DNA of 64,000 bases from Candidatus Oxydemutator sp. (GCA_965203445.1 OZ241883.1:416001-480000), one strand, 5' to 3'; numbered from the stretch's first letter, positions 8,160-61,527 are shown. The notes: generated by a model from the letters alone, not told the origin. Numbers and translations are program-made.

Positions 8160-8168
8160 GCGCACTTT

Positions 8169-8432: not shown

Positions 8433-8610
8433 CCGCCGGGAACGGGGCGCCGGCGCCCGACTTGCGCTCGACCGAACTCCCCCGGCTTCCTGCACCCGTT
8501 GTTCCCGTCGTACCTTCCCCACTCCCTGCCCGAACGGGTAGCGCGGCAATCGGCGCCGATAAAGCGCCGCGAGCAGCGCTGGGCCCTAGGCATCGAATAT
8601 AATCCCGCCG

Positions 8611-9738: not shown

Positions 9739-9836
9739 CCCCGAGGCGAGACGGGAGGCGCAGAGGGTGCGGCACGACCCGGCGCCAGCGACCGCCTCGG
9801 GCGCCCCCTCCTGTATAATGCGCGGTCGCCGTTTCA

Positions 9837-39707: not shown

Positions 39708-40369
39708 TGGACGCGATGACGGCTGATTCGCCACAATCGCCGCCGGTTGCGGGCGTTTTGGTGCGCTATCTCGGGCGGTGCGAATACGTCGGGGTGCGCG
39801 ACGCGATGGAGGCATACACGCGGCGGCGCACGGCGACGAGTGCCGATCAGTTCTGGTTGCTGGAACATTTTCCGGTTTATACGGCGGGGCGCGCGACCGC
39901 GCCGGATGCGCTGGCGCGCCGCGTCGCGCGCTCGATTCCGGTCGTATGCACCGACCGCGGCGGGCAGGCGACGTATCACGGGCCGGGACAGGCCGTGCTC
40001 TATACGCTGCTCGACTTAAGGCGCCGCGCGCTCGGCGTGCGACGTTGCGTGTATCTGCTCGAAGGGGCCGTCATCGCTTTTCTCGGCGATTGCGGCGTGC
40101 GCGCGCACCGCTTGGCGGACGCCCCCGGCGTCTATGTGCGCGGGCGCAAGATCGCCTCGCTCGGATTGCGCGTGCGCGGCGGATGCTGCTACCACGGCGT
40201 CGCGTTGAACGTCGGCATGGATTTGTCGCCTTTCGACGGCATCGTCGCGTGCGGTATGCGCGGTATGCGGGCGACGCAAATGGCGGACTGCGGCGCGGCG
40301 CCGGACGTCAAGAGCGCGGCTTTCGGTCTTGCGCGGAGTCTGGCCGCGCGGTTGGACGAACGTGTCTGA
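39708..40369 (+). CDS. lipB: octanoyltransferase
   Basis: LEH.PVYT, DRGGQATYHGPGQ, KIASLG, HGVALNV; start approximate. Confidence 0.95.
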
Positions 40370-41381
40370 GCACCGCCCTGTCCACGCCGCAACGTCGCGC
40401 GCGAACCCGGCCACCCACCGGCGCGGCGCGCACAAGTTGTTGCGCGCGCGCAGCGCCGCCGCCAGGGCCGCCGCCAACGCCGCCACCAACGCCGTCGCCA
40501 GCACCGCCACCGGCGCCGCGCCTCTCGCCAGGCCGCGTTGGCTGAGGGCAAAACTGGTCTCCGATCCGGTTTCCGGTTCGCGCGTGGCACGTATGCGGCG
40601 GCTGCTCAGGCAAGACCGGCTGCACAGCGTCTGCGAGGAGGCGCGATGTCCGAACCTGAACGAATGCTTCTCGCGCAACACCGCGACCTTCCTGATTTTG
40701 GGCGACCGCTGCACGCGCCGGTGCGCGTTCTGCGACGTCGCGCACGGGCACCCAATGCCGCCGGATCCATATGAACCCGGGCGCTTGGCGCGGCTGGTGC
40801 GCCGCCTTGCGCTCGCCTACGTCGTCGTCACGTCGGTGGATCGCGACGACCTCGCCGACGGCGGCGCCGCGCACTTCGCCGCGTGCGTGCGCGAACTGCG
40901 CGCGATAACGACGGCGCGCGTCGAGATACTGGTTCCGGACTTTCGCAGGCGGATTGCGCGTGCGCTGTGCGCGCTCGCGCGCGCGCCCTGCGACGTGTTC
41001 GCCCACAACGTCGAGACGGTGCCGCGGCTTTACCGCGAGGTTCGCGCCGGCGCCGATTATTCCGAATCGCTGCGGCTGCTGCTGGAACACAAGCGCCGCT
41101 TCCCCGACGTTCCGACAAAGTCGGGACTGATGTTGGGGCTGGGCGAAACTACCGACGAGATCGAGGAAGTGATGCGCGACCTGCGCCGCCACCGCGTGGA
41201 CCTGCTGACCATCGGCCAGTATCTGCGCCCGGCGCCCGGTTACTGGCCGGTGCGACGCTACGCCGCCCCTGCCGAGTTCAAGCGCCTGGCCAAGATGGGC
41301 CGCGCGATGGGGTTTCGCCACGTCGCAAGCGGCCCGCTGGTGCGCTCGTCGTACCACGCCGACGCATACGCACCCGATTGA
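40362..41381 (+). CDS. lipA: lipoyl synthase
   Basis: CEEARCPNLNEC, CTRRCAFC, RSSYHA. Confidence 0.96.
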   Translation: MSEHRPVHAATSRANPATHRRGAHKLLRARSAAARAAANAATNAVASTATGAAPLARPRWLRAKLVSDPVSGSRVARMRRLLRQDRLHSVCEEARCPNLNECFSRNTATFLILGDRCTRRCAFCDVAHGHPMPPDPYEPGRLARLVRRLALAYVVVTSVDRDDLADGGAAHFAACVRELRAITTARVEILVPDFRRRIARALCALARAPCDVFAHNVETVPRLYREVRAGADYSESLRLLLEHKRRFPDVPTKSGLMLGLGETTDEIEEVMRDLRRHRVDLLTIGQYLRPAPGYWPVRRYAAPAEFKRLAKMGRAMGFRHVASGPLVRSSYHADAYAPD

Positions 41382-41496: not shown

Positions 41497-43098
41497 TCAG
41501 TGCCACAATCGTTTTGCCTTGAGGTGGAAAATTGTTTCCGAATATGCGGCCGTGCGGTCTTTTTCTACGCGGTTGAGGACGGGGCGTCTGTATTGGTGGA
41601 CGATCCGCAAATCGGAAGCCTCGGCAATCTGCGGATACAGGTCGTATTTGTCGTTGGCGACGAGGAAAACGTCGAAATCGTCGCGCAGGAAACGCCGGCA
41701 ATTCACCAGAACCTTTGCGATCTCGGTCGCATAAGAGGCGCGCGCCTGCCTCCCCTGGCCCTTGGAAAGCGGCCCTATCTCCCATGCGTCCCGGCGCGAG
41801 AAACCGAAGAGATCGTAGGAGTAGGCATGCTGCTCGTGATAATCAATCAGGCCGACGTAGGGCGGGCTGGAAAAAATCCCCTTGATCTTCTGCGAGGCGA
41901 CCAGATCGGCAAGCGCCTTGTTTTTTCCCGCAAGGGCCGCGCGGACGTCTATCGTCCGGCTGTCGCCGACCAGGCAGTGCTGATGCGTTCCCGTGCGCAA
42001 TGCGCCGAAGTCGCGCAGACGCCGGCACGTGTCCTCGCAATAGCGCCGCCACCATCCGAAAAGCGACAAAATCGGCTTGCAGACCTTTCCGTGCTTCTTG
42101 CAATAATAGGGACGCGCGACGGGTTCCTTCAGCGTCCCCAGATCGGCGTGGGTCGTCGCGCGGCAGGAGCGGATCGTGCGGCTCAGCACGACCCTCGCGA
42201 CGTCTTTCACGTCGGCGCGGCGTATCCCTTGCAGCCGCGCCAGCAGAAAATCCATCTCCCGTCTGACCGGCGGCGCATACCATTTGTCTAAAAAGTCGCG
42301 CCCGCCGGGCGGCGCGACCTCGACGCCGTATCGCCGCACGAGACCGTCGAAAACAGGCAGAAATTCTTTCAGCTTCTCCGCCGCGTAACGACGCTCGGGA
42401 ATTTTTCCCTGATTCACGTCGCGGCGATAATCGGGAGACGGAAAGTATTTCTGATTAAACGCCTTCAGGCGATCCGTCAGTTCGGCGTCAAAGAGGAGAT
42501 GGGCGCCGCCCTTGCGGAATTCCCGCAAAGACTCGGTCAGGCGCGAGAACACCGATTCGACGCGATCCACGTCACAGGTGCCGATTTTCACGTTGCCGAC
42601 GAGGGCGTTGAACGCTGAGACGTCCACGCCTACCGCGTGCATTCCAAGCTCGTTGGCCTGCACCAGGGTCGTCCCGCTGCCGCAGAAAGGATCCAGCACG
42701 ACGTCCTCCTCCCCGAAGCAGGCCTCTTTCTTGAAAGCGTCGGTATGGCCGTCCAGGAAATACTCTGCGAGCTGCGGGATGAACTTGCCCTTGTAGGGAT
42801 GCAGACGATGGACGTGCTTCGTTCTTTCGGCTTCCCGGTATTCGGTGAAAGAAAGCCGCCAGTTGAGATCGTCGCCGAGCTGCTCTTTCCAGCGTTTTTC
42901 CTGGGGGCCTATCTGATTCCGATAATAGTCTTCCAGATCGCCGGCACGGACGGCAGGGCCGCCGTCGCCGGCGCTTTTTCGCACCCTGCCGTACTGGACG
43001 AGATAGCTGATATTGGACTGCGTGACTTGTCGGCCCAGCAGCTTGGAAGCGAACCGGCTCGCTTCCGCCAAAGTCAGCAGGTCTGCGTCTTTTGCCAC
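41497..43098 (-). CDS. DNA methyltransferase (likely N4-cytosine) with N-terminal HTH
   Basis: HPYKGKFIPQ, DPFCGSGTT (motif I), SSPPY (motif IV). Confidence 0.88.
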   Translation of the reverse strand: MAKDADLLTLAEASRFASKLLGRQVTQSNISYLVQYGRVRKSAGDGGPAVRAGDLEDYYRNQIGPQEKRWKEQLGDDLNWRLSFTEYREAERTKHVHRLHPYKGKFIPQLAEYFLDGHTDAFKKEACFGEEDVVLDPFCGSGTTLVQANELGMHAVGVDVSAFNALVGNVKIGTCDVDRVESVFSRLTESLREFRKGGAHLLFDAELTDRLKAFNQKYFPSPDYRRDVNQGKIPERRYAAEKLKEFLPVFDGLVRRYGVEVAPPGGRDFLDKWYAPPVRREMDFLLARLQGIRRADVKDVARVVLSRTIRSCRATTHADLGTLKEPVARPYYCKKHGKVCKPILSLFGWWRRYCEDTCRRLRDFGALRTGTHQHCLVGDSRTIDVRAALAGKNKALADLVASQKIKGIFSSPPYVGLIDYHEQHAYSYDLFGFSRRDAWEIGPLSKGQGRQARASYATEIAKVLVNCRRFLRDDFDVFLVANDKYDLYPQIAEASDLRIVHQYRRPVLNRVEKDRTAAYSETIFHLKAKRLWH

Positions 43099-45596: not shown

Positions 45597-47651
45597 CTAC
45601 CGGATCTTCATGCCCGGCTGCGCGCCGGCGTCGGGTGCGATCAGGAACAGTTCGCCGCCGCCGGCGCCGGCGGCCAGCACCATCCCCTCGGAGACGCCGA
45701 AGCGCATTTTCTTCGGCGCCAGGTTGGCGACGACGACGACCAGGCGGCCTGGCAGGCGCTCGCTCTCGTACGCGCGGCGGACGCCGGCCATGATCGTGCG
45801 GTTGCGCGCCTCGCCCACGTCTATTGCAAGGCGCAGCAATTTGTCGGCGCCCTCGATTTTCTCGGCGCTGACGATTTTGCCGACGCGCAGATCGAGCTTC
45901 TGAAAATCGGGCAGCCCGATTTGCGCCGCTTGTGTGGGCGCGTCGTCCGCCGCCGACGCACTCGTTTCAGATTTCGGGGCGCTGCCGGGCGTTTCCACCA
46001 GACGCTTCGCCACGTCGCGCTCGATGCGCGTGAGCAGCGGGCGAAAGCGGTTGATCCTGTGGTGCTCGCCGGCACCTGCTTTTTCCACGAAAGGGTCGCG
46101 TTGCCAGTGCTGTAACGAACAGTTCAAAAACGCCTCGGCCCGCGCGCACGTCTCGGGCAGCACCGGCTTCAGGTAGAGGACGAGGCGGCTGAACAGCAAC
46201 AGGCCGAGACTGCATACGACGTGCAGCTCGCCGCCGGCGTCCGGGCGCTGCTCGCGTTTTGCGATCTGCCACGGCTTGTGGCGATCTATGTAGCGGTTGG
46301 CCTCGTCGGCGAGCGCCATGACGGCGCGCATCGCGGCCGCGTATTCGAGGGTCTCGTATCGGCGCGCGACGTCGGCGCCGGCGTCCTGGAAACGGCGATA
46401 GAGATCGTGGCCGACGGTCTTGTCCGTGCACAGGATGCGGTCGTCGAAGTACCGGTGGATGAAGCTCGCGCAGCGGCTTGCGACGTTGACGATTTTGCCG
46501 ACCAGATCGCCGTTGACGCGCTGCACGAAATCGTCGAGTCCCAAGTCGGCGTCGGCGACGTTGTCGCCGAGTTTGGCGGCGAAGTAATAGCGCAGATACT
46601 CCGGCGACAGATGCCGCAGATAGGTCTTTGCGGTGATGAAGGTGCCGCGCGACTTCGACATTTTCTGGCCGTCGACCGTCACGAAGCCGTGGCAGTGCAC
46701 CGCGGTCGGCTTGCGAAAACCCGCGCCCTCGAGCATCGCCGGCCAGAACAGCGTGTGGAAATAGGCGATGTCCTTGCCGATAAAATGGTGCAGTTCGGCG
46801 TCGGAAGCGGCGCCCCAGAAGCGCTCGAAGTCCACGCCCTCGCGTTTGCAGTAGTCTTTGAAACTCGCCATGTAGCCTATCGGCGCGTCGAGCCAGACGT
46901 AGAAGTACTTGCCGGGGTGGTCCGGTATCTCGAAGCCGAAGTACGGCGCGTCGCGCGAGATGTCCCAGTCTTGCAGCCCGGCGTCGAACCACTCGTCCAG
47001 CTTGTTGCCGATCTCGGGCTGCACGTGCCCGCCCTTCGTCCAGCGTTTGAGGCTGTCCTCGAAGTCGCGCAGCCGGAAGAAGTAGTGCTCCGATTCGCGC
47101 GCGACCGGCTTGTCGCCGGTCACCACCGACACCGGGTTTTTCAGTTCCGAGGCCGCATAGGTCGCACCGCACGCCTCGCAGCAGTCGCCGTACTGATCGG
47201 CGGCGCCGCAGCGCGGACACTCGCCCTTGATGTAGCGGTCGGGCAGAAACATCCCCGCCCGTTCGTCGTAGGCCTGGGTGACGTTGCGGCGCGTGACGTG
47301 CCCGCCCTCCTTGAGGCGGCGATAGATCAGCTCCGACAGTTCGCGGTTTTCGTCCGAATGCGTCGTGTAGTAGTTGTCGAAATGCACCAGAAACGCGGCG
47401 AAGTCGTCGGCGTGCTCCTTGTGCATACGCGCGATCAGTTCCTCGGGCGCCACGCCTTCCCGTTGCGCCTTGATCATGATCGGCGTGCCGTGCGCGTCGT
47501 CGGCGCAGATGTAATGACAGACGTTGCCGCAAAGCCGCTGAAAGCGAACCCAGACGTCCGCCTGTATGTACTCGAGCAGATGCCCGAGGTGTATCGGCCC
47601 GTTGGCGTACGGCAGGGCGTTGGTAACCAGTATTTCGCGCTTTTTTGTCAT
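45597..47651 (-). CDS. metG: methionine--tRNA ligase
   Basis: [17 protein letters not shown]-terminal tRNA-binding domain. Confidence 0.98.
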
Positions 47652-48139: not shown

Positions 48140-49486
48140 TCAGCCCTTTTTTCCCATCTCTTGCAGGCGCGCCTCCAGATCGGGCGGCGCCACAAATAGA
48201 AACGTGCGGCCCGCGCGCGAGTGGCGCAGCAGATCTCTCTGCTCCAACGTCAGCAGATCATTGCGCGCCGTCGCGTACGTGATGCCGTGGCTGTTGAGAT
48301 GCGACCTGATCGAGTAGCGAACACCGGGGTTGCGCAGGGCGTGTCCCAGCAGCGCGGTTTGCCGATGATTCAATCCGACGTCGGCGCGCAACATCTGCTC
48401 GATGGCGCGCACCTGCCCGCTTTTGCGCGCAATGTAATTGTGCAGTTGTTTGATGGCCCCGTTGATGACCCGCAGTTGGGCGAGAATGAAATAAGTAAGA
48501 TCGTTCTCGTCGGTTTCGGTGTAGAGAAACGAGCGTGCGTAAGCCGCCGGCGCCTTGCGCAGGATGCTGGAAATGGAAAGGAATTCGGCGAGCCAGTAGC
48601 CTTGTTTCAGCATCGCCCAGTAAAACAGGGCGCGCGCGGTGCGTCCGTTGCCGTCCATGAAAGGGTGGTCGTAGGCGAACCAGAAATGCAGGAGTATGGC
48701 ACGCACCACCGGATGTACGAATTCGTGGCGCGGGCCACCGTTGGCAAATCGGCAAAGCTTTTCCATGTGTTTTGGGATTTCCCGCGCCTTCGGCGGTTGA
48801 TGCAATAGCGTGCCGTCTCGGTCGTATACCGCAATTTCGTCGTCGGTGCGCAGCCACGGCGGGGGGCAATCGGCGGGCAGCGTGTCCTTGCAGATGACGC
48901 CGTGAATCTCCTTTATCAGGGCCGGCGTCATTTTCCGTTGCTTGTGTTCGCCCGTGAGTTGCATCGCATGGTAGTTGTTGAGAATCATCCGTTCGGCGCG
49001 ATCCACGGGACGGCGCCCGGAGCGCAACATTTCCTTTGCCACCTTGCGCGTCGTCGCGGCGCCTTCGAGCTGGCTTGAGGTGATCGCCTCCTCGATCAGC
49101 GAACCTTGCAGATAGCGGTCTTTGCTACGTGGATTGGCAATCGGGTCGGGCACGTTGATCTGGCCGCTTGCGCCCCGGTCAACGTTGTGCAGCATCTCGA
49201 GGGCGGGGTCGGGCATCGTGTAGGAAAAACTGCGCCCTGCACGATCCACGAGCGGGACGAAACGCCGGGTCTGCAATCGTGTCCATTTGATGGACGCCCA
49301 CCATTCCTCCGATGTAAGCCCCTTTGGGGGCCGCACGTAGCGCAGAGTATGCCAATGGCGGTATTTTCCCTCCGGAGCAGGGCCGGTTTCCGTTCCGGGC
49401 AACTGCGCGATGCGTCGCAGGAGATCAGCGTCGGCCAATTTCTCTATAGAATCTTCATATGTCGCTGGCGTTACAGGGATTTTCAT
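48140..49486 (-). CDS. Fic family protein with C-terminal HTH
   Basis: HPFMDGNGRTAR; inhibitory SSQLEG. Confidence 0.93.
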   Translation of the reverse strand: MKIPVTPATYEDSIEKLADADLLRRIAQLPGTETGPAPEGKYRHWHTLRYVRPPKGLTSEEWWASIKWTRLQTRRFVPLVDRAGRSFSYTMPDPALEMLHNVDRGASGQINVPDPIANPRSKDRYLQGSLIEEAITSSQLEGAATTRKVAKEMLRSGRRPVDRAERMILNNYHAMQLTGEHKQRKMTPALIKEIHGVICKDTLPADCPPPWLRTDDEIAVYDRDGTLLHQPPKAREIPKHMEKLCRFANGGPRHEFVHPVVRAILLHFWFAYDHPFMDGNGRTARALFYWAMLKQGYWLAEFLSISSILRKAPAAYARSFLYTETDENDLTYFILAQLRVINGAIKQLHNYIARKSGQVRAIEQMLRADVGLNHRQTALLGHALRNPGVRYSIRSHLNSHGITYATARNDLLTLEQRDLLRHSRAGRTFLFVAPPDLEARLQEMGKKG

Positions 49487-50148: not shown

Positions 50149-50233
50149 GACGCGCTTTTGCTCGCGCATGGGTCTTCTGGCTTTCGACAAGTCCAGGGCA
50201 CTCGTAACATCCTTTCCCTCATCAAAGTTTTTA

Positions 50234-50506
50234 TCAAAATTTTTCGCTTTCATAGAGAGCAACCTCCTCGGGTCGGGACTTTCGGACTGAAATGATGCGG
50301 ATATTTTCCCCACGATAGGTGATCACACATGACCAGTGTTTATCCGCAATCATTCCAATCACCAGATACCTCGGTTCGCCTTCATTTCTGGCTGGTATTT
50401 CCAACAAGTTGGAATCATCCCAAAGTTTTTGGGCATTGACAAAGTCAATGCCGTGCTTGCCGAGATTTGTCGTGCTCTTACGCCCGTCAAACTCGAATCT
50501 GACCAT
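50234..50506 (-). CDS. BrnT family toxin
   Basis: FEFD..KS..N..KHGIDF...EPR...IRIISVRK. Confidence 0.9.
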   Translation of the reverse strand: MVRFEFDGRKSTTNLGKHGIDFVNAQKLWDDSNLLEIPARNEGEPRYLVIGMIADKHWSCVITYRGENIRIISVRKSRPEEVALYESEKF

Positions 50507-50523
50507 GGTATAAAAATTATACC
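50507..50523. promoter_or_regulatory. palindromic operator overlapping the brnT -10 box
   Basis: GGTATAA-AAA-TTATACC perfect inverted repeat containing minus-strand TATAAT. Confidence 0.7.
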
Positions 50524-50613
50524 ATTATGGAGTTTGCAAAGACTTTGTGATGTGACTTGCCCGACTACTGCACGGGGCGCCGAGTAGTCGGCTATATGAA
50601 GAGAGTGGGGCAA

Positions 50614-52671
50614 TCAGATCTCTGATACTTGCAGTTTTTCCCCTATCACACGTTCCCAGTTTTGTAGAGTCGCGCAATAGTATGGGAGTGGTTTGCCCTC
50701 ATACTCAGCGATATGCAGATTTCCTTCGCCAAGCAACAGTGTCAGGATTGGGCGTTTCAGTTCATCTTCTTTCCGGGGATCTTCGGGGCTTTTGCTTTCC
50801 TTGATGAGGTGGTACAACTGGCCGCCATAAACCCCGATTCCATCCTCTCCACTAGGCATCGCCCTGGGTACGCGACAGTACTTGGTATTGCGCTCCTTCA
50901 ATTTCTCCAATAGCTTGTTTTTAACGTCAGCCATTGCAGCCGAGGCCGCTTGAATTACTTCTTGAGCACCAGTGTCTTCAATAACTTGAGTCTGCTGTTC
51001 CTCCTTACATATATTACCCATGTAGACTTCACCGAAATCGCGCAGGCGAACGGGAAGAACAAAGGGTTGGTGCGGTGCACTCCACATGTAGCAGTTGCCG
51101 GGAATGGGTTCCGCAATAAGATGAGCCAGAATATCTGACGAATAGTGAGAGTTGTACTTGCCGAGAACACTGGCATCACCCTCGGAGAGTAAATGAAAGC
51201 AGAACCAGTTGTCCGCCTGACTAAGCAGTTCAGGTGCCATCGCACCGGGCTGTTGCGTGACGAGCATGGCCCCAAGATCGTACTTGCGCCCTTCCTTCAC
51301 CCATTCGACATAGGGACTGGTATCGTCCAGGTTACGGCCGAGGACACTCTGCGCTTCCTCGACAACGGCAACAACGGGAATGATCGGATTTCCGCCCGTA
51401 AAGTGTTCCTGATTGTGCGAGAAAATTTTTCGGAGAAGCAATCCGGCGAGTTTATTGCCCGCACCAGAACTCAACAGGCTGATGTCGATCACAACGACTT
51501 TCCCCTTCGCCAGAGCCTGTAGCGTTCCCGACAAGACTTGGCTGTCCGGATCATGGAGAGTACGTACGACACCAGACATATTGCTGCGGGCAGCTGCGAT
51601 TTCCGCCGTTGACTGAGAAATTTGTCCTATAGCGTAGCCAAGGAGTGTGCCGACTTCCTTATCATCGGCCTGTAGTCCCTTTTCGTAAATCAGCTCAACG
51701 AGCTTGTGCCAGTTAGCATTGGAGACACTCTTGAGTTTGAGTACATTCTGTTGGGATTGGCGATCGGAAGAAACTGCGATGCCGATGACGTCGCGCGGGG
51801 AAAGGTCCCGGATATCGAGTTTCACCTCGCCAGCCTTCCAACTGCCATAGTATGCGCTTGGTGCCTGTCGGTTTGTGAACACCAGAAGTTTTTCCTTCAA
51901 ATCTGGGACGTCGCACAGTCCAGGACGGCCCGCCACACGGTCAGGCCAGAAATACTCGCCATCAGGGTCGAAAATCAGGGTGCCGACGGGACGACCGTTA
52001 GCCGTCGTTGGTTGCGTCTGATACAACTCCGCAATGAGGAACTTGACGAGATTCGACTTCCCATAGCCTGCGCGCGCAAAGACGACGGAGCGTCGAGAAA
52101 CAAGGTTCTTTATATCGAAAGTGACCTGAAGGCGGGGATCAAGAGATATTAATTCCGGCTGTGTCTGTTTGTGATCGGCTCCGCTGAATACGAACTCACC
52201 CAACACGTACTCTCCTAATTCCGTCTTGCCCCGGCTCAGTTTGCAGAGTTCCTGCAAAACCCTCTCGCTGGGCAAAGCGACCTGTGCACCGAGATGCGGG
52301 AGCCTGCGTTGTGAGGGGACGTATATGATACTGTTGCCGTCCGTGCGCACCGCCCCAAGCAATTTCACTTGCACGCGATACTTGAGACGCTGCTCCTTCA
52401 AGTCCTCAGGCACCTTCTGTTGCCTGCGTTGCATCGTGTTGACGTAATCTTCTCCTTCCGGCGCCGCCAGTAATCCAGAAGGAACAAAACGGGTTATGCG
52501 TCCAAGCGAAGCTTCCTCTGGTGACCCGAGTTCGACGAGAAGAAATTGCCCGAGTTGTGGACGGTCGAGCATACTGGCGTCGTACGGAGCAACAATCTCG
52601 GCTGCAAACTCATATCCGCGTTCGTTGAATCCTTTGAACGTTCCTACGATTTTCGAATTTGCGAACAGCAT
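50614..52671 (-). CDS. HerA/DUF87 ATPase
   Basis: HAS-barrel-like N-terminus, Walker A ARAGYGKS, DPDGEY, Walker B VVEEAQ, EGRKY, TQQP. Confidence 0.88.
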   Translation of the reverse strand: MLFANSKIVGTFKGFNERGYEFAAEIVAPYDASMLDRPQLGQFLLVELGSPEEASLGRITRFVPSGLLAAPEGEDYVNTMQRRQQKVPEDLKEQRLKYRVQVKLLGAVRTDGNSIIYVPSQRRLPHLGAQVALPSERVLQELCKLSRGKTELGEYVLGEFVFSGADHKQTQPELISLDPRLQVTFDIKNLVSRRSVVFARAGYGKSNLVKFLIAELYQTQPTTANGRPVGTLIFDPDGEYFWPDRVAGRPGLCDVPDLKEKLLVFTNRQAPSAYYGSWKAGEVKLDIRDLSPRDVIGIAVSSDRQSQQNVLKLKSVSNANWHKLVELIYEKGLQADDKEVGTLLGYAIGQISQSTAEIAAARSNMSGVVRTLHDPDSQVLSGTLQALAKGKVVVIDISLLSSGAGNKLAGLLLRKIFSHNQEHFTGGNPIIPVVAVVEEAQSVLGRNLDDTSPYVEWVKEGRKYDLGAMLVTQQPGAMAPELLSQADNWFCFHLLSEGDASVLGKYNSHYSSDILAHLIAEPIPGNCYMWSAPHQPFVLPVRLRDFGEVYMGNICKEEQQTQVIEDTGAQEVIQAASAAMADVKNKLLEKLKERNTKYCRVPRAMPSGEDGIGVYGGQLYHLIKESKSPEDPRKEDELKRPILTLLLGEGNLHIAEYEGKPLPYYCATLQNWERVIGEKLQVSEI

Positions 52672-52672
52672 A

Positions 52673-53836
52673 TCAGGCCTCCTTATATCTGAGGTTCGTC
52701 AGCGTCCGTCCCAGATGCTTCATGCGAAGCAAGCGTTCAGATTCTTCATCCGTAAGTCTGCTGCACATTCCTTGAAGCAGCATGTCCTGGAGATCCTGAA
52801 TCTCGAGCCCCGACAGCTTTGCGAAATTGTGCGCTTTCTGGATACACATCGGGTAGTCCGGAATAGGAAAACCTTGCTGCGCATCAACGGTCAGTTGTCC
52901 GAGGATGCGTTCCGCCTGACCAGCCTGCCACTCGGCAACGTCAACGGGCCATACAGGATCCATAGGTCTATCACCGAATTTAACGAGATAGAGTTTCCCA
53001 AAGGACTGGTATAGTCGCCGGCCGGTGTCGTCCTCGTCAGTGGTTTCATACGTGTCGAGCCAGGTACGATCGAAGTTGTAGCACTCGGCCTCAATATCCT
53101 CATCAACCCGAACAAAGCATGGATAAGGTTTGTGAAACGTGGCTTCGAGTTCCAGGGCGACGGCAAGTCGACCGAGTACGGCACTTTGCTTGGCTACCCC
53201 GACTAACGACAGTTGTGCGTTTTCCTTTGCATGAGTGGCAACACCGGCACGGATTTTCTGATCAAGCAAAGGAAACATGTCTCGGGTGAACGATTTGGTT
53301 CGGAGAAGACCATCCCGCACCAAAATTGTATCCCCTCCCCATTGGAGGTTGGGGTTGGCGACGAGATCATATAAGACGGCCCATTCTACAATGTCTCGAT
53401 AGCAGCGCATTGCCCCTGTACTCTTGCCGGGCGTTCCAATCCCTCTGATGAGATACGACATCTGTTCGAGGGTTTTGCCCGTGTCTTGGGCCAACCGCTC
53501 CAGGGGTGTAACTGTATGTCCCGAATCCTGTTTGGTTCTTTCTTCCAGTTCTTCAATGCTGATGGTGCTGGAGACAGCGTCGAGCACATGTTCCTTACCA
53601 CGCGAATCAACCACGCGCACAAGTTCGACAATCGCCGGATTGAAGGCAAGACGGTTATCACCTCCATCCGCAGAGACGAATGAAACGGCATTAACGGAGT
53701 AGGAACGGAGTGGTTTCACTCCATCCCGAAGGCGTTTCGCGTACTCGCGAAACTTTTGGAGATGAGGGACTTCGGAGTTATACGCCTTCATCACCTTTCG
53801 TCTGAGTTCCTCTCTATCCAGGTTAGCGAGTGACAC
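52673..53836 (-). CDS. NurA-like nuclease
   Basis: VSADGG, RDIVEW, LVRDGLL, VGVAK, DYP....AH; directly upstream of herA; start GTG 53836 or TTG 53887. Confidence 0.75.
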   Translation of the reverse strand: MSLANLDREELRRKVMKAYNSEVPHLQKFREYAKRLRDGVKPLRSYSVNAVSFVSADGGDNRLAFNPAIVELVRVVDSRGKEHVLDAVSSTISIEELEERTKQDSGHTVTPLERLAQDTGKTLEQMSYLIRGIGTPGKSTGAMRCYRDIVEWAVLYDLVANPNLQWGGDTILVRDGLLRTKSFTRDMFPLLDQKIRAGVATHAKENAQLSLVGVAKQSAVLGRLAVALELEATFHKPYPCFVRVDEDIEAECYNFDRTWLDTYETTDEDDTGRRLYQSFGKLYLVKFGDRPMDPVWPVDVAEWQAGQAERILGQLTVDAQQGFPIPDYPMCIQKAHNFAKLSGLEIQDLQDMLLQGMCSRLTDEESERLLRMKHLGRTLTNLRYKEA

Positions 53837-53840
53837 GTTC

Positions 53841-55007
53841 TCAGCCCATTGTCTCAGCGATTGTATGGAGTCGACGCAGGTTGGCAATGGTTCCTCCCAG
53901 GTTCCAGTTTCTCCATTCAGGGAACCGTTGTGCTCGAGGAAACGCCCATCGCTCGGCCCAATACTCGGTAATCTGGCTTGGTGTCTGCGTTATGTACTCA
54001 GGATGCACTGCTTTTCCAAGAAGAAAGTCGCGTGTATTGCCAGCGAGAGGGATGACAAAAACTTGCCGACGGATTCCGTGCTGAAGAATGTCGGCCTTTA
54101 TTCCCAATTCTGTTGCAGCTTGGCGAATGACCCGTATACGCCAATTTGGTCCATTACCGAATTTGTTTCCTTGGGCATAGGAGTGATTGCGACGGATGAG
54201 GACGTCCCGCAGTTGCGTGAATGTGTCTTCGTCAATATGAAAGTGTCCATAGCCCTGAGAATACCACGTTGGAACTTGATGATTTTCAACATTCGTGAGA
54301 AATGCAGTTCCCTGCGGAATGCGAAGGCGGTTGTATATGGATGATCGTCCAAGTGCCGACGATGTCGTCAGAAGAACAAGTTGTGGTTTCTTTTTCTTTT
54401 CACTTATTACACCCCGATAGTTGCGATACTTCAGGTGGAAATTTCTTACTATCTCGCTGGAGGTAGCCAACAGGGCCACCAACTTACCGCCTAAGATCTT
54501 GCTGTATGGCGGTAAGGCCCCAAGGACAAATGCGTCCATCGTGTGGATTAGACGATCTTTGCGTCCGTTGGCATCCCAACCAACCCAAGCGTCTCGCGGC
54601 GTGAGATTAAAGACGGGATCAGTCAGTCCGATAATACCGATGAGCTTCCCGTTGTTTTTATCTCTGACAAGGTAGCGCATACGCCTCCCGAAGCCTTTGC
54701 TTACTGGAATTGACCAAAGAAGTGAGGCGGCGTTGAATATTTGGGAGTCACAGGTTCCTCCTGCCACAGCAGTTAATTGAGGCTCGATCTCAGAAATATT
54801 AATTTCACGTGGATTGGCGAGATACTGGCGCAGAAGACCAATGTGATGCTCAAAGGAGCCATTCATAGTAGCCATAGTGGCCAAACGTTTTCCTGAGTGG
54901 AACACGCGAATCTGCTTTTTGTTTAAGGTGCTGGGCAAGGATGGAAACTGCTCGGCTACGCTAAGCAGATGTCTTCGTAGGGAATATTCCTTGGGGGTGA
55001 GTTTCAT
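53841..55007 (-). CDS. DUF4338 (Druantia DruA-like) protein
   Basis: WSIPVSKGFGRR.RYLV, GKLIGI, RD..VGW, MDAFVLGALPPY..LGGKLVA, TTSSALGRSSIYNRL. Confidence 0.85.
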   Translation of the reverse strand: MKLTPKEYSLRRHLLSVAEQFPSLPSTLNKKQIRVFHSGKRLATMATMNGSFEHHIGLLRQYLANPREINISEIEPQLTAVAGGTCDSQIFNAASLLWSIPVSKGFGRRMRYLVRDKNNGKLIGIIGLTDPVFNLTPRDAWVGWDANGRKDRLIHTMDAFVLGALPPYSKILGGKLVALLATSSEIVRNFHLKYRNYRGVISEKKKKPQLVLLTTSSALGRSSIYNRLRIPQGTAFLTNVENHQVPTWYSQGYGHFHIDEDTFTQLRDVLIRRNHSYAQGNKFGNGPNWRIRVIRQAATELGIKADILQHGIRRQVFVIPLAGNTRDFLLGKAVHPEYITQTPSQITEYWAERWAFPRAQRFPEWRNWNLGGTIANLRRLHTIAETMG

Positions 55008-55148
55008 GGGTAAGCTTGAGCGCGTTCTCTGTATTCCAGGGATTATGTGGCGCGCAATAGAAAATTGACTTTTGTTAGCGTCCGGCTCTCGGCGGGCGGG
55101 CGCGATATTTGCCGCGCCGATGCGACGGGAAGAGAGAGTATAAGCCGG

Positions 55149-55454
55149 TCAGGCGGGTTTGTAGCGTCGGACTTTGATTTTGTCCGCACGGGCGCGCATT
55201 TGCGAGGCGTCATACCATGCCTGCATTCGCAGCAGCAGGTCCATGCCGACGCCGAATGCTTTCTCAAGGCGCAGCGCCATCTCCGGCGATAGCGCGGCGT
55301 TGCCGTTCAGCAAGGCCGAAAGCGTCGCGCGACGCACCCCCAGAATCGCAGCCGCCTTCGTTACGTTCAAACCCAATTCCTCGATGACTTCCGTACGAAT
55401 GAAACTGCCCGGATGCGGGGGAACCATGTTCACTTTGAGACCGCCAGTAACCAT
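55149..55454 (-). CDS. higA: HigA family antitoxin
   Basis: [22 protein letters not shown]. Confidence 0.9.
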
Positions 55455-55510
55455 CAGTGGTAATCCTCCAAAGTGAGGCGATCAATATGACCGCTTATCA
55501 CGTCTCCAAG
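55454..55510 (-). pseudogene. 3' remnant of HigB toxin
   Basis: ...LEDYH-stop overlapping the higA start; 5' part replaced. Confidence 0.55.
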
Positions 55511-55637
55511 TGTACGGCGATACCGCTCATAGCACAAGTGTGTGTATAAGGCCAGAAACATACTGGACAGGTTGTTGACCCGGCCAAGTTTGATGTGTAT
55601 GTTCCTTACACATGCATATTGAATACAGACGAGTTCC

Positions 55638-55913
55638 ATGGCCAGAGTGCAGTTGATAATCCCTGACGAGGAGCGCACCCGGTTTGCCCACCAGGCACGC
55701 CGGGAAGGCATGTCCCTGAGCGCCTGGCTGCGCGCCGCGGCCCGTGAACGGCTTGCGCGGCAATTGAAAACCGGACGCTTTGAATCCGAAGCGGAACTCG
55801 CGGCCTTTTTCGCCGAATGTGACAAATTGGAAGGCCCGGGCGAGGAGCCGGACTGGAGACAACACCTGGTCACCATCAACGAATCCCGCGGGCGCGGCGT
55901 ATCAAACACTTGA
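55638..55913 (+). CDS. RHH/VapB-like antitoxin, orphan copy
   Basis: Near-identical to 58398-58673. Confidence 0.75.
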   Translation: MARVQLIIPDEERTRFAHQARREGMSLSAWLRAAARERLARQLKTGRFESEAELAAFFAECDKLEGPGEEPDWRQHLVTINESRGRGVSNT

Positions 55914-55947: not shown

Positions 55948-57186
55948 CTACAGTTTTTCCCACAGACGGCGCGTGGGGACGGCGTGAAGCTTTTCCCCGA
56001 AGCGGATCATTTTCCCCCCGTTATAAACCACCGCGCCGCCGGCAAAGGCGTCCCCCATCGTGGATTGCAGGCGGCGCAGGCCGCGAAAGTCGGAAGGGGA
56101 AATGGTGGCCGAGGACTTCACTTCCACGCCGGCGACGGAGTGCACGCTGCGTTCGATAACGAGGTCCACTTCCACGCCGTCTTTGTCGCGGTAGTGAAAA
56201 AAATCATGCCTTTCATCGTGCCCGTCCGCCTGCCGCCTCAATTCCTGCAGGACGAAAGTTTCCAGCAGTTGTCCGAGCAACGCGCGGTCGTTTCGCAGTT
56301 CCTCCGCGTCCACTTTCAGCAGCGCGCAGGCAAGCCCGGTGTCGGCCAGATGCAGTTTCGGGGTCTTGACGAATCGTTTGCGTCTGTTCGCGTGCCACGC
56401 GGGAATTCTTTCCAGCAGAAACAGCCGCTCCAGCAAAGAGATATAACCTTGAATCGTCGGTCTGCTGTGCTGAAAGTATGCCGCGAGTTTATTGACGTTC
56501 AAAAGCCGCGCCGTGGAGGCCGCCGAAAACGCCAACAGTCTCGGCAGATCCTCGACCGACCGGATGCGTGAAATCGTGAATGCATCGCTATTGGCTATGG
56601 TTGTCAGATAGCTTTGGTACCACTCGATGCGACGTGTCTTGTCGGAGTATTCGAGGGCCGCCGGATAACCGCCATATACTATTCTTTGCGCGGGATCGGT
56701 CAGCGCGACTTGCCAGCGGTTCGGAAACTTTGCCGAGAACAGCAAATCCAGAAAATCCGGTTTTTTGTGTTCCAGCTCGGTTTGCGCGAGCGGATGCATA
56801 CGGACGATTTCCATTCGTCCGGCGAGCGAATCGGAAAGTCCGCGCACGTGCAGAACGCTGACCGAGCCGGTCAAAATGAAGCGCCCTGGAACGCGGTTTT
56901 TGTCAACGGCGAGTTTTATCTGTGAAAAGATTCGGGGAGATTTCTGAATCTCGTCCAATATGACTTTTCTCGGCAGAGAATTGACAAAGCCCACGGGGTC
57001 GTTCAGGACGTAATCCAGGGTTTGTGCATCGTCCATGCTGATATAGACATAGCCCGCGGATTTCCCCACTTTCTGCGCGAGCGTCGTTTTGCCACACTGA
57101 CGCGGCCCATGAATCAGCGTAACCGGAGTGTCTTTCAAGGCCCTTCTCAGGCATGGTTCCACGTGGCGGGGATGCAGTCTTTTCAT
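55948..57186 (-). CDS. AAA ATPase with DUF4143-type C-terminus
   Basis: GPRQCGKTT, LDEIQ, LTGS, SLAGR, KTPK..DTG, EVDLV...EVK. Confidence 0.9.
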   Translation of the reverse strand: MKRLHPRHVEPCLRRALKDTPVTLIHGPRQCGKTTLAQKVGKSAGYVYISMDDAQTLDYVLNDPVGFVNSLPRKVILDEIQKSPRIFSQIKLAVDKNRVPGRFILTGSVSVLHVRGLSDSLAGRMEIVRMHPLAQTELEHKKPDFLDLLFSAKFPNRWQVALTDPAQRIVYGGYPAALEYSDKTRRIEWYQSYLTTIANSDAFTISRIRSVEDLPRLLAFSAASTARLLNVNKLAAYFQHSRPTIQGYISLLERLFLLERIPAWHANRRKRFVKTPKLHLADTGLACALLKVDAEELRNDRALLGQLLETFVLQELRRQADGHDERHDFFHYRDKDGVEVDLVIERSVHSVAGVEVKSSATISPSDFRGLRRLQSTMGDAFAGGAVVYNGGKMIRFGEKLHAVPTRRLWEKL

Positions 57187-57213
57187 ACGGTTTATTATGT
57201 CCGCAAGTGGGAC

Positions 57214-57295
57214 TGATTGCAAGTTTATATATAGGACGATTAAAAGTTCAGTAAGAGGATGATTGCAAGTTTCATGTATGGCTGATTGAAAGTAT
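57214..57295. repeat. four direct repeats with 23-bp period
   Basis: TGATTGCAAGTTT (57214), CGATTAAAAGTTC (57237), TGATTGCAAGTTT (57260), TGATTGAAAGTAT (57283). Confidence 0.75.
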
Positions 57296-57325: not shown

Positions 57326-58204
57326 CTATCCGTGCCCGATTTTCCAGACGCCCTTTTCTCGGAAGGCCGGGATGGTCTGGCGGCGGGCGGCGTTGGTGAC
57401 GGCGGGTGCCGAGAGTTTTTGTTGCCTGATGTAATCGGACAAGCGGACGATTCGTTCTCCTTTCAGGTAGGCAGTCCGTTTGTGCAGAGATTCCATCAAG
57501 GCCAGGAACAGAATCTTTTCCATCCCCTTTGTCCGGCCGTTGGCGTCGTAATCGCGCAACGCCTGATAGTAGACCTGCTTTTCTTTGTTGCGGATTATGA
57601 CGCAGGGAAATCCCGACTCCAGCAGCTGGAAATTGACGAGCACCCGTCCGATGCGGCCGTTGCCGTCGCAAAACGGATGGATGGATTCAAAATCCAGATG
57701 GAATTTTGCTATTTTGTCGAGAAAATAAGCGTTCATATCGTTTGCGCAGGAAAGCAGAATTTCGCTCATCATTTCTTCGACGTGTTCCGGCGGAGGTGCT
57801 ACGTGATAACCGACGCGCACGAACTCGCCCTGCCGCCGAAAGCGCCCGGCGATGGAGTCGTCAATGCCGCCCATCAGCATATTGTGGAGCAGCAGTATCA
57901 GGTCTCTGGTCAGCGGTTCTCTCTCCGCGGCCCTGTCGCGCTCGTATGCGATCACACGCGCCAGGTTTTTCGCCTCGAACATTTCCCGAATGGATACGTT
58001 TCGGGATAACTTGGTCCCCAGCAGGATTTTCTCGGTCTCCCGCAGGGTCAGCGTGGAGTTTTCTATCGCGTTGGAGTTATAGACGTTCTCCGGCGTTTCC
58101 GCCTCGTCAATCAAGGCCAGCAGGGATTCCTTGCCGGTTTTGAGGGAGGCATATTCCTCCCGCAAACGTTGGATTCTGTCTCTGATGGACGGGGAGATTG
58201 CCAT
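57326..58204 (-). CDS. Fic family protein
   Basis: SNAIEN inhibitory motif, HPFCDGNGRIGR, small C-terminal HTH-like domain. Confidence 0.93.
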   Translation of the reverse strand: MAISPSIRDRIQRLREEYASLKTGKESLLALIDEAETPENVYNSNAIENSTLTLRETEKILLGTKLSRNVSIREMFEAKNLARVIAYERDRAAEREPLTRDLILLLHNMLMGGIDDSIAGRFRRQGEFVRVGYHVAPPPEHVEEMMSEILLSCANDMNAYFLDKIAKFHLDFESIHPFCDGNGRIGRVLVNFQLLESGFPCVIIRNKEKQVYYQALRDYDANGRTKGMEKILFLALMESLHKRTAYLKGERIVRLSDYIRQQKLSAPAVTNAARRQTIPAFREKGVWKIGHG

Positions 58205-58397: not shown

Positions 58398-58673
58398 ATG
58401 GCAAGAGTGCAGTTGATAATCCCCGACGAGGACCGCACCCGGTTTGCCTACCAGGCACGCCGGGAGGGCATGTCCCTGAGCGCTTGGCTGCGGGCCGCGG
58501 CCGGTGAACGGCTTGTGCGACAGTCGAAAACCAGACGCTTTGAATCCGAAGCAGAACTCGCGGCCTTTTTCGCTGAGTGCGACAAATTGGAAGGCCCGGG
58601 CGTGGAACCGGACTGGAACCAGCACCTGGCCACCATAAACGAATCCCGCCGGCGCGGCATATCAAACACTTGA
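58398..58673 (+). CDS. RHH/VapB-like antitoxin
   Basis: MARVQLIIPDE...AR.EGMSLSAWLR; overlaps the PIN gene. Confidence 0.8.
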   Translation: MARVQLIIPDEDRTRFAYQARREGMSLSAWLRAAAGERLVRQSKTRRFESEAELAAFFAECDKLEGPGVEPDWNQHLATINESRRRGISNT

Positions 58674-59065
58674 TCTTCGTAGATACCAACGTATTCATGT
58701 ACTCGGTGGGCCGGGCACATCCGCTGCAGGAACCGGCCCGCGAATTTTTTGCCGAGTCGGACCGCAATCAGACACCGTTATGCACTTCCGCGGAAGTCTT
58801 ACAGGAACTGGCCCATGCTTACCTTCCCGTGCAGCGACAACGAACGCTCGAGGCTGCCATGTCGCTTGTAATCAGGGCGGGAATTGAGGTTTGGCCTTTG
58901 GAGAGCGAGGATGTACATCTCGCCTGCCAACTGCATGAGCAGTTCCCCACCCTTGGCGTAAGAGACCTCTGCCACCTGGCAAGTTGCCAGCGACACGGAG
59001 CGACCAGTATCAAGACCTTCGATAAAGCCCTCGCCACTGTCGCAAACATCCCGAAAAATATATAG
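58670..59065 (+). CDS. vapC: VapC/PIN toxin
   Basis: IFVDTNVF, EVLQE, RDLCH, TFD; TTG start. Confidence 0.88.
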   Translation: MIFVDTNVFMYSVGRAHPLQEPAREFFAESDRNQTPLCTSAEVLQELAHAYLPVQRQRTLEAAMSLVIRAGIEVWPLESEDVHLACQLHEQFPTLGVRDLCHLASCQRHGATSIKTFDKALATVANIPKNI

Positions 59066-59091: not shown

Positions 59092-61527
59092 ATGCCGAGC
59101 AGAATTGTCGATCTAATAAAAAAATGGGCGAACTGGCTGTGGTGCCGAATATCCGCCACTACTGATAGCGGTGATGGCGACAAGCCTGTTCCGCCAAATA
59201 ACGATGTATCCAGTCAGCCGGAAGGTGTTGGACAAGATCGCATCGAGCCATATTCTGATGGTCCCGAGAAACCACTTGACGAGAATCAACGGACAGAGAA
59301 CAAAAATGAGCAGGCGTCTGGCGACGGAAAAACACCCCAGAGTTCTCCTGCGTCAAATAAGCAATCAGGGCTTCCCGCTACCGATACTGATAGCGGCAAG
59401 CCTGTTCCGCCGAATAACGATATATCCAGTCAGCCGGAGGATGTTGAACAAAATCGCATCGAGTCATGTTCTGATGGTCACGAGAAACAACCCGACGAGG
59501 ATCAACGGACAGAGGACAAAATTGAGCGGGCATCTGGCGACGGAATAACGTCCCAAAGTTCTCCTGCGTCAAATAAGCAGTCAGGCCTTTCCGCTACCGA
59601 TGAGGATGACTCCGACTCTTATGATCATGAAAAGCCTGAACTGGCAGGAAACGACAAACCCGTTGGCAGGCAATCCAAGCCTCCCAGAGAAATACCCGCG
59701 AGACGAGGGCGGGAAAGAGGCACCTCGTCCCGGAAGGAAAAGGGAGAACCAAAGAAATCTTCCCCTGGCCCCCGAGCACAACTGATATGCATAGAAAAAG
59801 AACAGCGCTGGGGGCTGTACTTATCTGCGGATGAGGAATGCCCAATAGCAAAAGTTCGGCAAGGAAACGAACCTCTGGCCAGTGCAGGAGGTGAATGGAG
59901 TATTCTATCCTTCCGTGGCAGCTTGTCCATCACCTATGAGGATGGAGAACGTCACGAGATTGAGCTATTCAATGATAGACCGCTGGTCTTCAAATTCCAA
60001 GGCGGATGGCAAGGCACAGGCCACAAAGTCAAATACATCACGAGCGGCCATTTCATCGTCATCGTGCCGCAAGAATGGCATCGCAGAGGGAACGTCCCGG
60101 TCGAACAGGATGGGTGCACGGACTCCGGGTTCATTGCACACTACTTCTCTCGTGGGAGAGAAGACTCATCCGAAGATGCAGGCGGTTTCGGGGAATATGC
60201 CGGCCCATTGACGAAATCCAGCTTCACATTGATCGGGAATCGTATCTTCGACAACTCCGATGAAGGCGAACTGTTCGGCGGCCCGGTTCTGGAGCTGAAC
60301 CTCGCTTCTGAGGTCGAGTGGGTGCGAGTCGGCGAGGAAAGAGATGGCGGATGGCCGGGCGACAACTTCAAGCCGGACAAACCTCTTGCAGAGGTCCTGA
60401 ACGGCCGACAGGGGCGATTCTTCGTTCGTGTGTACGACGATGATACCAAACGGCTGGACAGTGACGAGTTTCGATATTTCGCCAATCTTCAAAAAATCCT
60501 TGTGGATGGCGCGCCCTACAGTGAAACTTCGCTGCTCATTCCGTCTTCGACCGGCCATTCTCCGACGGAAGTGCAGCTCATCGGCACCGAGGATTCCCTC
60601 ATTCTCCCAAAATTGGAGACAGATGAGGCCTGGACAACCGTACGGCCGGACGGCACCGTTGTTGTCAAACCGCATCCAGACGGCGATCATGTTTCTTGTA
60701 AGCTGGAGTCCGATAAGGGCAGCGTCCGGGTGGAAATAAAGCTCCCCCGCATCTGGTGGCGGTTGAGCCAACGCGGGGAACAATCCGAAGACTGGCACAG
60801 CGTACCATTCGAGGTGACGCGCCAGGGATTCAGGGACCGTGCCGAACGGGACGAGGCTATTTGGCTGCGGTTGCCGCTACGTATCGCTTCCGTCAAGGCA
60901 GGATTCGACGAAGAAACAGATCGAAAGTACCGCTCTGACAAGAAGGGAGAAGATGTCGAGATTCCCTTGCTCGATTTTCTCGACTACCGGCAGATTGACC
61001 AACGGCTGAACGCGGACACTTCGCTTAATATTGAAATTGGCGAACAAGTGTTGGCACTTATCCAGGTTTCCAGTGATCCGGTGCCAACGATCCTCTCATT
61101 TGCGTGTGAACCGGAGGCCATCAACGAGGGGGATGTGGCGACCTTGTCCTGGGAAACTCAGGACACGGAACCCGAAGGCGTAACAATCGAACCCGAAATC
61201 GGGTCGGTGAAACCAAATGGCAGCCGCACTGTTTCGCCGAACGAGACCACAACTTATACGCTGAGATTGACGGCTGCCAATATGGATGACGTGACAAAAG
61301 ACGCGACCGTGACGATTCATCGGGAAGCACCGCACGGAACACCACCGGAAGCCATGGTCAAGTGTCGGAGTGGATGGCGACGAGGCAAGGGCTTCAGCCG
61401 GCGCGAACTGCGCGCCGCAGGTCTGGCACCAGAGAACGACGCGCGGGGTTTCATTCCTGTCGACCGCCGCCGACGGAGCATGCATCCGGACAACGTAGCA
61501 ACACTCAGGAGGTTGACTGATGCCTGA
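59092..61527 (+). CDS. 811-aa protein: disordered repeat N-terminus, beta-rich middle, Ig-like domain, C-terminal eL13-like motif
   Basis: 72-aa tandem duplication; PTILSF...ATLSW...TTTYTL; RRGKGFSRRELRAAGL...IPVDRRRRSMHPDNV. Confidence 0.8.
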   Translation: MPSRIVDLIKKWANWLWCRISATTDSGDGDKPVPPNNDVSSQPEGVGQDRIEPYSDGPEKPLDENQRTENKNEQASGDGKTPQSSPASNKQSGLPATDTDSGKPVPPNNDISSQPEDVEQNRIESCSDGHEKQPDEDQRTEDKIERASGDGITSQSSPASNKQSGLSATDEDDSDSYDHEKPELAGNDKPVGRQSKPPREIPARRGRERGTSSRKEKGEPKKSSPGPRAQLICIEKEQRWGLYLSADEECPIAKVRQGNEPLASAGGEWSILSFRGSLSITYEDGERHEIELFNDRPLVFKFQGGWQGTGHKVKYITSGHFIVIVPQEWHRRGNVPVEQDGCTDSGFIAHYFSRGREDSSEDAGGFGEYAGPLTKSSFTLIGNRIFDNSDEGELFGGPVLELNLASEVEWVRVGEERDGGWPGDNFKPDKPLAEVLNGRQGRFFVRVYDDDTKRLDSDEFRYFANLQKILVDGAPYSETSLLIPSSTGHSPTEVQLIGTEDSLILPKLETDEAWTTVRPDGTVVVKPHPDGDHVSCKLESDKGSVRVEIKLPRIWWRLSQRGEQSEDWHSVPFEVTRQGFRDRAERDEAIWLRLPLRIASVKAGFDEETDRKYRSDKKGEDVEIPLLDFLDYRQIDQRLNADTSLNIEIGEQVLALIQVSSDPVPTILSFACEPEAINEGDVATLSWETQDTEPEGVTIEPEIGSVKPNGSRTVSPNETTTYTLRLTAANMDDVTKDATVTIHREAPHGTPPEAMVKCRSGWRRGKGFSRRELRAAGLAPENDARGFIPVDRRRRSMHPDNVATLRRLTDA
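59182..59601 (+). repeat. in-frame 216-bp tandem duplication
   Basis: AAGCCTGTTCCGCC at 59182 and 59398, with similarity continuing for about 200 bp. Confidence 0.9.

Follow-up and report, generated by a model that had tools for sequence, protein, structure and literature searches.

What does DruA do? This hallmark of Druantia type I, a potent anti-phage system of broad range for which we know of no mechanism, is encoded in a 64,000-nucleotide stretch of DNA from Candidatus Oxydemutator sp. (GCA_965203445.1 OZ241883.1:416001-480000; the whole stretch is called the window below) as the first of three genes, the other two coding for a NurA-like nuclease and a HerA-like ATPase. Such a trio is a minimal three-gene setting for DruA, beside an effector whose relatives, TdpAB and NurA-HerA, are structurally understood. 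An earlier note on this DNA had put the locus forward as a candidate defence system of DUF4338 with NurA-HerA, and our analysis supports that proposal as far as computation goes: the trio is very probably a defence cassette with a TdpAB-like effector. We put at about even the chances that the cassette works in the manner of a restriction-modification system, in which DruA would mark self DNA and NurA-HerA would destroy unmarked DNA. In window coordinates, the three genes are:

53841-55007, minus strand: druA (DUF4338/DruA), 388 residues, open throughout
52673-53836, minus strand: gene for the predicted NurA-like (TdpB-like) nuclease, 387 residues from a GTG start at 53836
50614-52671, minus strand: gene for the predicted HerA-like (TdpA-like) P-loop translocase, 685 residues, open throughout

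The longest open reading frame (ORF) of the middle gene, 52673-53887, is free of stops and would encode 404 residues from a TTG start at 53887. The GTG at 53836 is the most likely start because most of the 120 homologues listed have 387 residues, and the gaps are therefore 4 nucleotides after druA and 1 nucleotide before the HerA-like gene. The ORFs and this start thus agree with the three co-oriented, tightly packed genes, and the very gaps, described before. A promoter and terminator scan of 50200-55700 gave counts at chance level and did not inform the operon structure. The first gene had been called DUF4338/DruA-like, and its product matched both Pfam PF14236 (E 1.6e-76) and the PADLOC model DruA1 (E 5.2e-120).

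The effector pair is most readily understood through its solved relatives. The HerA-like protein matched Pfam DUF87 (E 4.9e-24), and its best sequence match in the PDB was TdpA (8wet_A, E 2.2e-22), ahead of Sulfolobus HerA (4d2i, E 1.9e-9). It carries a Walker A motif, GYGKS, at residues 202-206 and a Walker B motif, VVEEA, at 436-440. The middle protein, whose operon partner is this DUF87 ATPase, matched no Pfam, PADLOC v2 or NCBIfam family at E up to 0.1. Its AlphaFold2 model (mean predicted local distance difference test score, pLDDT, 83.3) found TdpB as the top Foldseek match (8wfd_G, E 3.9e-14, template modelling scores 0.63/0.68), followed by NurA of Sulfolobus, Thermococcus, Pyrococcus and Deinococcus (2ygk at E 1.6e-6, 9x1m, 3tai, 7f6d). 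A profile built from 21 members of the family also reached TdpB, at E 2e-6, among PDB sequences. The predicted fold is that of NurA, the identity first proposed for the middle protein, and the model makes it a likely NurA-fold nuclease of the TdpB kind.

Conservation within the family can be laid over this model. Across the 21 NurA-like sequences D57, E71, D77, D148, E151, R174, K216, H336 and D351 were invariant, and an acidic residue (D/E) was conserved at position 175. On the model, D57 ends strand 1, E151 lies in the helix that precedes strand 170-175, D/E175 ends that strand and H336 sits in a late helix. With TdpB and TdpA as nearest relatives of solved structure, the two proteins are read here as a TdpAB-type translocase-nuclease, a likeness to which both the sequence comparisons and the model point.

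In TdpABC, a system of thermophiles, phosphorothioate marks block both the translocation and the nuclease action of TdpAB on self DNA. The primary paper on TdpABC is reportedly that of An et al. (2025, Nat Chem Biol 21:1160). In this phosphorothioate-based defence the modification is made by tdpC alone, according to an excerpt of PMC12914056. The likeness to the window cassette extends beyond the pair (8wet, 8wfd) to the layout, in which three genes comprise the pair and one gene for a DNA-marking enzyme, a role that for the window cassette is proposed. The differences lie in the third gene, in the window a DUF4338/GNAT gene with no tdpC among its neighbours (a genome-wide search for tdpC was not made), and in the pair itself. 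The NurA-like protein and TdpB are only 15-16% identical in a structural alignment, and the C-terminus of the HerA-like protein is ~100 residues longer than that of TdpA (685 versus 586 residues).

Other HerA partnerships are less close. Sir2-HerA and DUF4297-HerA are likewise defence-island systems in which an effector is coupled to a HerA-type ATPase. They differ in that neither Sir2 nor DUF4297 was found in the neighbourhood of the trio, and the HerA-like protein scored 49.3 bits against the NCBIfam model HerA_antiphage, whose cut-off is 800; matches to the PADLOC antiphage HerA models were also weak. Asked whether the trio belongs to a system already catalogued, we found no PADLOC v2 model that fits the NurA-like protein. 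A literature search, the supplements of PMC10853773 and PMC12839542 and the primary TdpABC paper aside, returned no description of DruA-NurA-HerA or of the methylase-NurA-HerA cassette presented below, and the YprA/ARMADA preprint mentions none of NurA, HerA and DUF4338. The earlier claim of a new system therefore stands in part. No description of the trio was found; the pair is TdpAB-like and the system hence not wholly new. The novelty probably lies in a TdpAB-type module with a different, DNA-marking partner, DruA, the TdpAB-type pair itself being known from TdpABC.

Does the trio recur across unrelated genomes, as the earlier note had asked? A word-index search returned 944 relatives of the NurA-like protein, none of them named and none with a Pfam domain, and an exhaustive search gave 298 clusters at 50% identity (E up to 0.001). 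Taking one genome per species, we assembled 45 genome loci that encode a NurA-like relative (loci carry L numbers below). By tblastn, HerA adjoins the NurA-like gene in 44 of these, the contig ending in the 45th, and DruA is present in 41, in the order DruA-NurA-HerA at 30 loci and NurA-HerA-DruA at 11. Their record titles span a dozen or more phylum-level groups, among them Latescibacterota, Nitrospirota, Acidobacteriota, Bacteroidota, Chloroflexota, Planctomycetota, Firmicutes, Gammaproteobacteria, Gemmatimonadota, Actinomycetota, Poribacteria and Thermodesulfobacteriota. When ORFs of the 45 loci and the window were clustered, only the trio was held in common. Any other flanking family occurred in at most three loci, and the remaining frequent clusters were shadow ORFs inside the trio genes. 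The cassette is self-contained and has no conserved fourth gene. Copies in genomes labelled as different phyla are 84-85% identical, which argues for horizontal transfer, and broken copies occur at L029, L044 and L045.

This distribution bears on two simpler accounts of the trio. One would assign it to housekeeping, as machinery for resecting the ends of DNA double-strand breaks with DruA as an accessory. NurA-HerA complexes do resect DNA ends, according to excerpts of published work, and the archaeal and Deinococcus complexes share with the window pair both the nuclease fold, seen in the NurA structures listed above, and the partnership with a HerA ATPase. The window nuclease differs from theirs in having no Pfam NurA match, and its cassette in being mobile and patchily distributed; no mre11 or rad50 was seen among the ORFs scanned near the trio, a scan that was not exhaustive. 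That patchiness, the high identity across phylum labels, the existence of broken copies and the low-GC defence-island setting make a resection role very unlikely. According to the available portion of a 2026 review (PMC13748450), the NurA-HerA complexes of bacteria are directed mainly at viral DNA.

The second account sees in the trio a mobile element's own biology, namely the pumping or processing of DNA during transfer or the exclusion of competing elements. ATPases of the HerA/FtsK kind pump DNA for many mobile elements (PMC10853773), and in another genome, G319, a trio of DruA, a 404-residue protein and a HerA/FtsK-like ATPase comes right after genes for a TnsB-like protein, TniB and TniQ. 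The flanks of the 45 loci share no integrase, transposase or transfer gene, and the NurA-like protein was unmatched in sequenced plasmid and phage collections. We give this account only a slender chance.

The part played by DruA became more tractable when relatives of the pair were found with another gene in its place, since a methylase in the slot of DruA turns the question of DruA function into one of a DruA-dependent DNA mark. An alignment of eight distant NurA-like proteins, searched against metagenome contigs, yielded 80 loci of a sister clade (L047-L126). All 80 carry the NurA-like gene, HerA follows it wherever the contig allows, and none matched the DruA profile at E up to 1e-5. A DNA methylase of ~376 residues adjoins the pair in 63 of them. 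In 49 loci the methylase is immediately upstream on the same strand, in nine it is downstream on the same strand and in four downstream on the opposite strand, and one locus has both downstream forms. All seven methylase representatives scanned matched Pfam N6_N4 (PF01555, E 2.4e-7 to 7.3e-11), and all five scanned against PADLOC matched its type II methyltransferase model (MTase_II, E down to 3.6e-20). The SPPY motif, typical of N4-cytosine methylases, was present in 47 of 48 full-length copies examined. Among the 17 loci without a methylase, 12 lie on contigs that are too short and five have enough flank.

The methylase-NurA-HerA cassette uses the same NurA-like and HerA-like families as the window (36-40% identity) and the same three-gene layout, its third gene occupying the slot of DruA. 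It differs in the nature of that gene, an N6_N4-family DNA methylase rather than DruA. We found no name for this cassette, and PADLOC v2 has no model for its NurA-like protein. Of the two roles first suggested for DUF4338, sensing or modifying DNA, the second thus gains support from a DNA methylase in the DruA slot of the sister clade.

The two cassettes also separate by descent. A maximum-likelihood tree was built from 110 NurA-like proteins, one from the window, 34 from the 45 genome loci and 75 from the 80 metagenome loci; it left out ORFs below 350 residues, sequences containing X and failures of ORF picking (for example L001, L004, L008, L021 and L038). The DruA-linked clade holds 35 sequences, 33 with a DruA ORF, one (L013) whose DruA match is not a single ORF and one (L007) without DruA. 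The methylase-linked clade holds 75, of which 59 have a methylase, 11 have undecidable flanks and five have none. Both clades received 100 in the Shimodaira-Hasegawa-like approximate likelihood ratio test, and one change between DruA and methylase suffices on this tree, which came from a quick search, drew a warning from the tool and has long branches meeting at the join.

Could DruA itself act on DNA? The AlphaFold2 model of DruA (pLDDT 84.2) was compared with solved structures over residues 70-340 by VIA-align, and all 50 best matches listed were GNAT-type, at Z scores of 7.3-8.8, a middling range for this tool. At the top of the matches listed stood Mom of phage Mu (8bv8_B, Z 8.8, root-mean-square deviation 3.9, 172 aligned residues, 9% identity). 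These matches are in line with PMC10853773, which states DUF4338 to be a GNAT domain. With an isoelectric point of 10.4 and 53 lysines and arginines against 28 aspartates and glutamates, DruA is best described, on the strength of its model and composition, as a strongly basic protein with a predicted GNAT fold. Invariant residues of DruA include R108, R109, Y168, K175 and H257; G173 and G174 are almost invariant, and the stretch from Y168 to K175 follows strand 156-164.

Mom moves glycine from a charged tRNA onto adenine N6 in double-stranded DNA, according to an excerpt of PMC13219725, and by analogy offers a precedent for a GNAT acting on DNA. What would link the two proteins, beyond the structural match, is that Mom is a GNAT-superfamily enzyme modifying a base in double-stranded DNA. 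They differ in that Mom is a counter-defence enzyme of a phage and that DruA has extra N- and C-terminal helical parts. A further hint, and only a hint, fits a DNA-marking DruA: the available part of a preprint (10.1101/2024.04.14.589459) describes a sequencing signal resembling N6-methyladenine (m6A) that is specific to Escherichia coli with Druantia type I, a system with no methylase domain.

In the mechanism that we propose, the cassette would be a self-contained, horizontally transferred three-gene unit directed against phages, plasmids or both. The HerA-like protein would form a hexameric ring ATPase and the NurA-like protein a dimeric RNase-H-like nuclease, the two making up a TdpAB-type machine that would thread double-stranded DNA and then degrade it. 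DruA would place a covalent mark on host DNA that stalls or excludes NurA-HerA, leaving only unmarked incoming DNA to be destroyed. We infer the formation of the complex, the degradation of DNA, DNA as the substrate of DruA, the chemistry of the mark and the protection of self. Because tdpC and the sister methylase, the other two partners, mark DNA, the simplest reading would make DruA the third DNA marker. More tentatively, DruA may modify DNA bases with a so far unknown acyl or aminoacyl group, which would serve as a 'self' signal both for NurA-HerA and for DruE. Candidate marks are a Mom-like aminoacylation of adenine N6 and an acylation of cytosine N4, the latter considered because the SPPY methylases found in the same slot are expected to target N4.

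Several observations weigh against this scheme, and they are best taken together with its main rival. In that account DruA would be a sensor, a regulator or a protein acyltransferase that switches on or backs up NurA-HerA, and the defence, being innate, would need no modification. The substrates of most GNATs are proteins or small molecules, and DruA has tied fold matches, with Mom within one Z unit of ordinary acetyltransferases. In Foldseek the best E for DruA was 0.029, and most of the 50 best rows were acetyltransferases, again weak matches. PMC10853773 groups the DUF4338 GNAT with domains that possibly target proteins.

Loci that have the pair and no modifier also bear on this question. 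Four of the 45 genome loci had no DruA match. L034 is cut by a contig end, and the cassette at L032 is truncated; at both L007 and L008 a NurA-HerA pair (~8000-11300) lies between genes for a CoA-transferase and an enoyl-CoA hydratase. The genome of L007 has DruA elsewhere, and the HerA ORF at that locus is without its first 33 residues. The L008 pair appears intact and has kept its catalytic-type residues and Walker motifs: 2 of 67 checked columns (the invariant columns together with D/E175) differ from the window, neither of them proposed to be catalytic, and DUF4338 was not found anywhere in the L008 genome. An ORF upstream of the L008 pair was considered as a DruA remnant and ruled out by hhalign. 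In the sister clade, the five methylase-free loci with enough flank comprise L051-L053, which are bare pairs among housekeeping genes, L060, where an unfamiliar 361-residue gene stands beside the pair, and L070, where a REase-ARP nuclease does. Since bare pairs exist, NurA-HerA evidently does not kill a cell that has no modifier, an outcome that strict restriction-modification would not predict. Going by its sequence, the intact pair without DruA argues against a strict dependence on DruA. Together with L051-L053 it fits an effector that is harmless until activated.

The comparative material adds cautions of its own. All 45 genome loci come from metagenome-assembled genomes, the two sets of loci came from different queries and each is biased to its own clade, and the missing plasmid and phage matches of the NurA-like protein count here too. 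Returning to the rival, a sensing or protein-modifying DruA sits poorly with a slot that DNA modifiers otherwise fill, the methylase in 63 of 80 sister loci and tdpC in TdpABC, and the strong positive charge of DruA suits nucleic-acid binding. We regard the rival as possible, if rather unlikely.

The marking scheme can be reconciled with the bare pairs if the machine loads only at free DNA ends, as NurA-HerA does, a refinement proposed for just this reason. Topology would in that case protect a circular chromosome, and the main use of the mark would be to limit damage to self DNA after breaks. The alternative is DruA as an activator or sensor. Should the marking scheme prove right, bacterial self/non-self discrimination would gain a new kind of enzymatic DNA modification, and the TdpAB-type machine would be seen to work with no fewer than three kinds of mark, namely phosphorothioate, methyl and that of DruA. 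A mark shared with Druantia would provide the first biochemical handle on that system, and would account for the methylase-less m6A-like signal of its type I.

DruA is found with other effectors elsewhere. Relatives with ~40% identity, encoded on Nitrosococcus and Meiothermus plasmids, adjoin DEAD/DEAH helicases in operons that resemble Druantia. Because DruA pairs with helicases there and with NurA-HerA here, we see it as a module combined with different effectors. Druantia type I (DruABCDE) and the window cassette thus have DruA in common, at the identity just given for the plasmid-borne, helicase-linked relatives. They differ in the effector, which in the window is NurA-HerA rather than DruE, and no match to DruB, DruC or DruD was found among the trio and eight neighbours. 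The genes around the trio, and the gene that marks the chromosomal side of the island, are the following:

45597-47651: MetRS, marking the chromosomal side of the island
48140-49486: SoFic-like Fic protein
50234-50506: BrnT
55149-55454: HigA-like antitoxin
55948-57222: PDC-S01 DUF4143 ATPase
57326-58204: Fic/PDC-S04 protein
58577-59065: PIN protein
59092-61527, plus strand: 811-residue protein with no family match
61520 to past the window end (3521-7780 of the extended locus L127), plus strand: DruE/YprA-type helicase, 1419 residues, with DEAD, Helicase_C and MZB/DUF1998 domains

The trio has a GC content of 0.49-0.54, compared with 0.62-0.71 at 40-47 kb of the window. A lower-GC block among toxin-antitoxin and Fic genes had been noted before, and the GC profile and the Fic, BrnT and HigA-like neighbours bear it out. 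The block exceeds the trio, running from ~47.5 kb to the window end, and the trio thus shares a larger low-GC island with other genes. Past the window, at L127 7933-17606, follow a type I HsdR and a 1355-residue protein, with nucleotidyltransferase, HsdS, TIR and STAND-NTPase domains. Judged by these gene assignments, the setting is a dense defence island. A tRNA scan of 30-64 kb found none, and hence no tRNA-linked island border in the window.

The helicase amends one further statement of the earlier note, that no druB, druC or druD and no mre11 or rad50 is adjacent. None of these was found among the neighbours and ORFs scanned; a DruE-type helicase does lie 6.5 kb from druA, on the plus strand. 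Its in-window part matched the PADLOC models DruE1 (E 1.8e-73) and DruE3 (E 6.5e-70), and its gene overlaps that of the 811-residue protein by 8 nucleotides. The druA gene might therefore serve, or also serve, this helicase, as part of a split or rearranged Druantia to which NurA-HerA is an add-on. Besides the helicase itself, DruE-like matches within 8 kb at L015 and L025 speak for such an arrangement, as does the Meiothermus plasmid, where DruA lies 1.1 kb from the DEAD/DEAH helicase. Those two loci are the only ones of the 45 with such a match in their 8-kb flanks, which is why we treat the helicase as separate. In the window it lies on the opposite strand, four unrelated genes from druA, whereas druA is only 4 nucleotides from the NurA-like gene, and the other Druantia components were not found. 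A split Druantia is accordingly improbable. The 811-residue protein and the helicase are perhaps a Druantia type III-like pair, a separate neighbour of the trio.

DUF4338 was also surveyed more widely and occurs in 26 of 401 genomes of the same phylum, the window's own genome included. Many of these matches are short, covering profile positions ~40-230 in ORFs of ~300 residues with two or three copies per genome. They are often found at the ends of contigs or on small ones. Some of the DUF4338 matches lie within ORFs of 700-1300 residues. This pattern could point to a repeated or mobile version of the domain.

The trio in G319, a genome of the same class as the window's, is a divergent one (C1:2592000-2611000; L157 6622-14742, minus strand). 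There the TnsB-like transposase, TniB and TniQ genes precede genes for a DruA of 397 residues, the 404-residue protein and a P-loop ATPase of 614 residues. The middle protein does not detectably resemble the NurA-like family, and the ATPase aligns with the window HerA around Walker B at E 1e-4. This trio is apparently cargo of a Tn7-like transposon.

Finally, a type II DNA methyltransferase of 533 residues (41497-43098, minus strand; PADLOC MTase_II, E 2.7e-213) adjoins a 349-residue protein with no family match (40308-41357, minus strand), and the two may form a restriction-modification pair outside the low-GC island.

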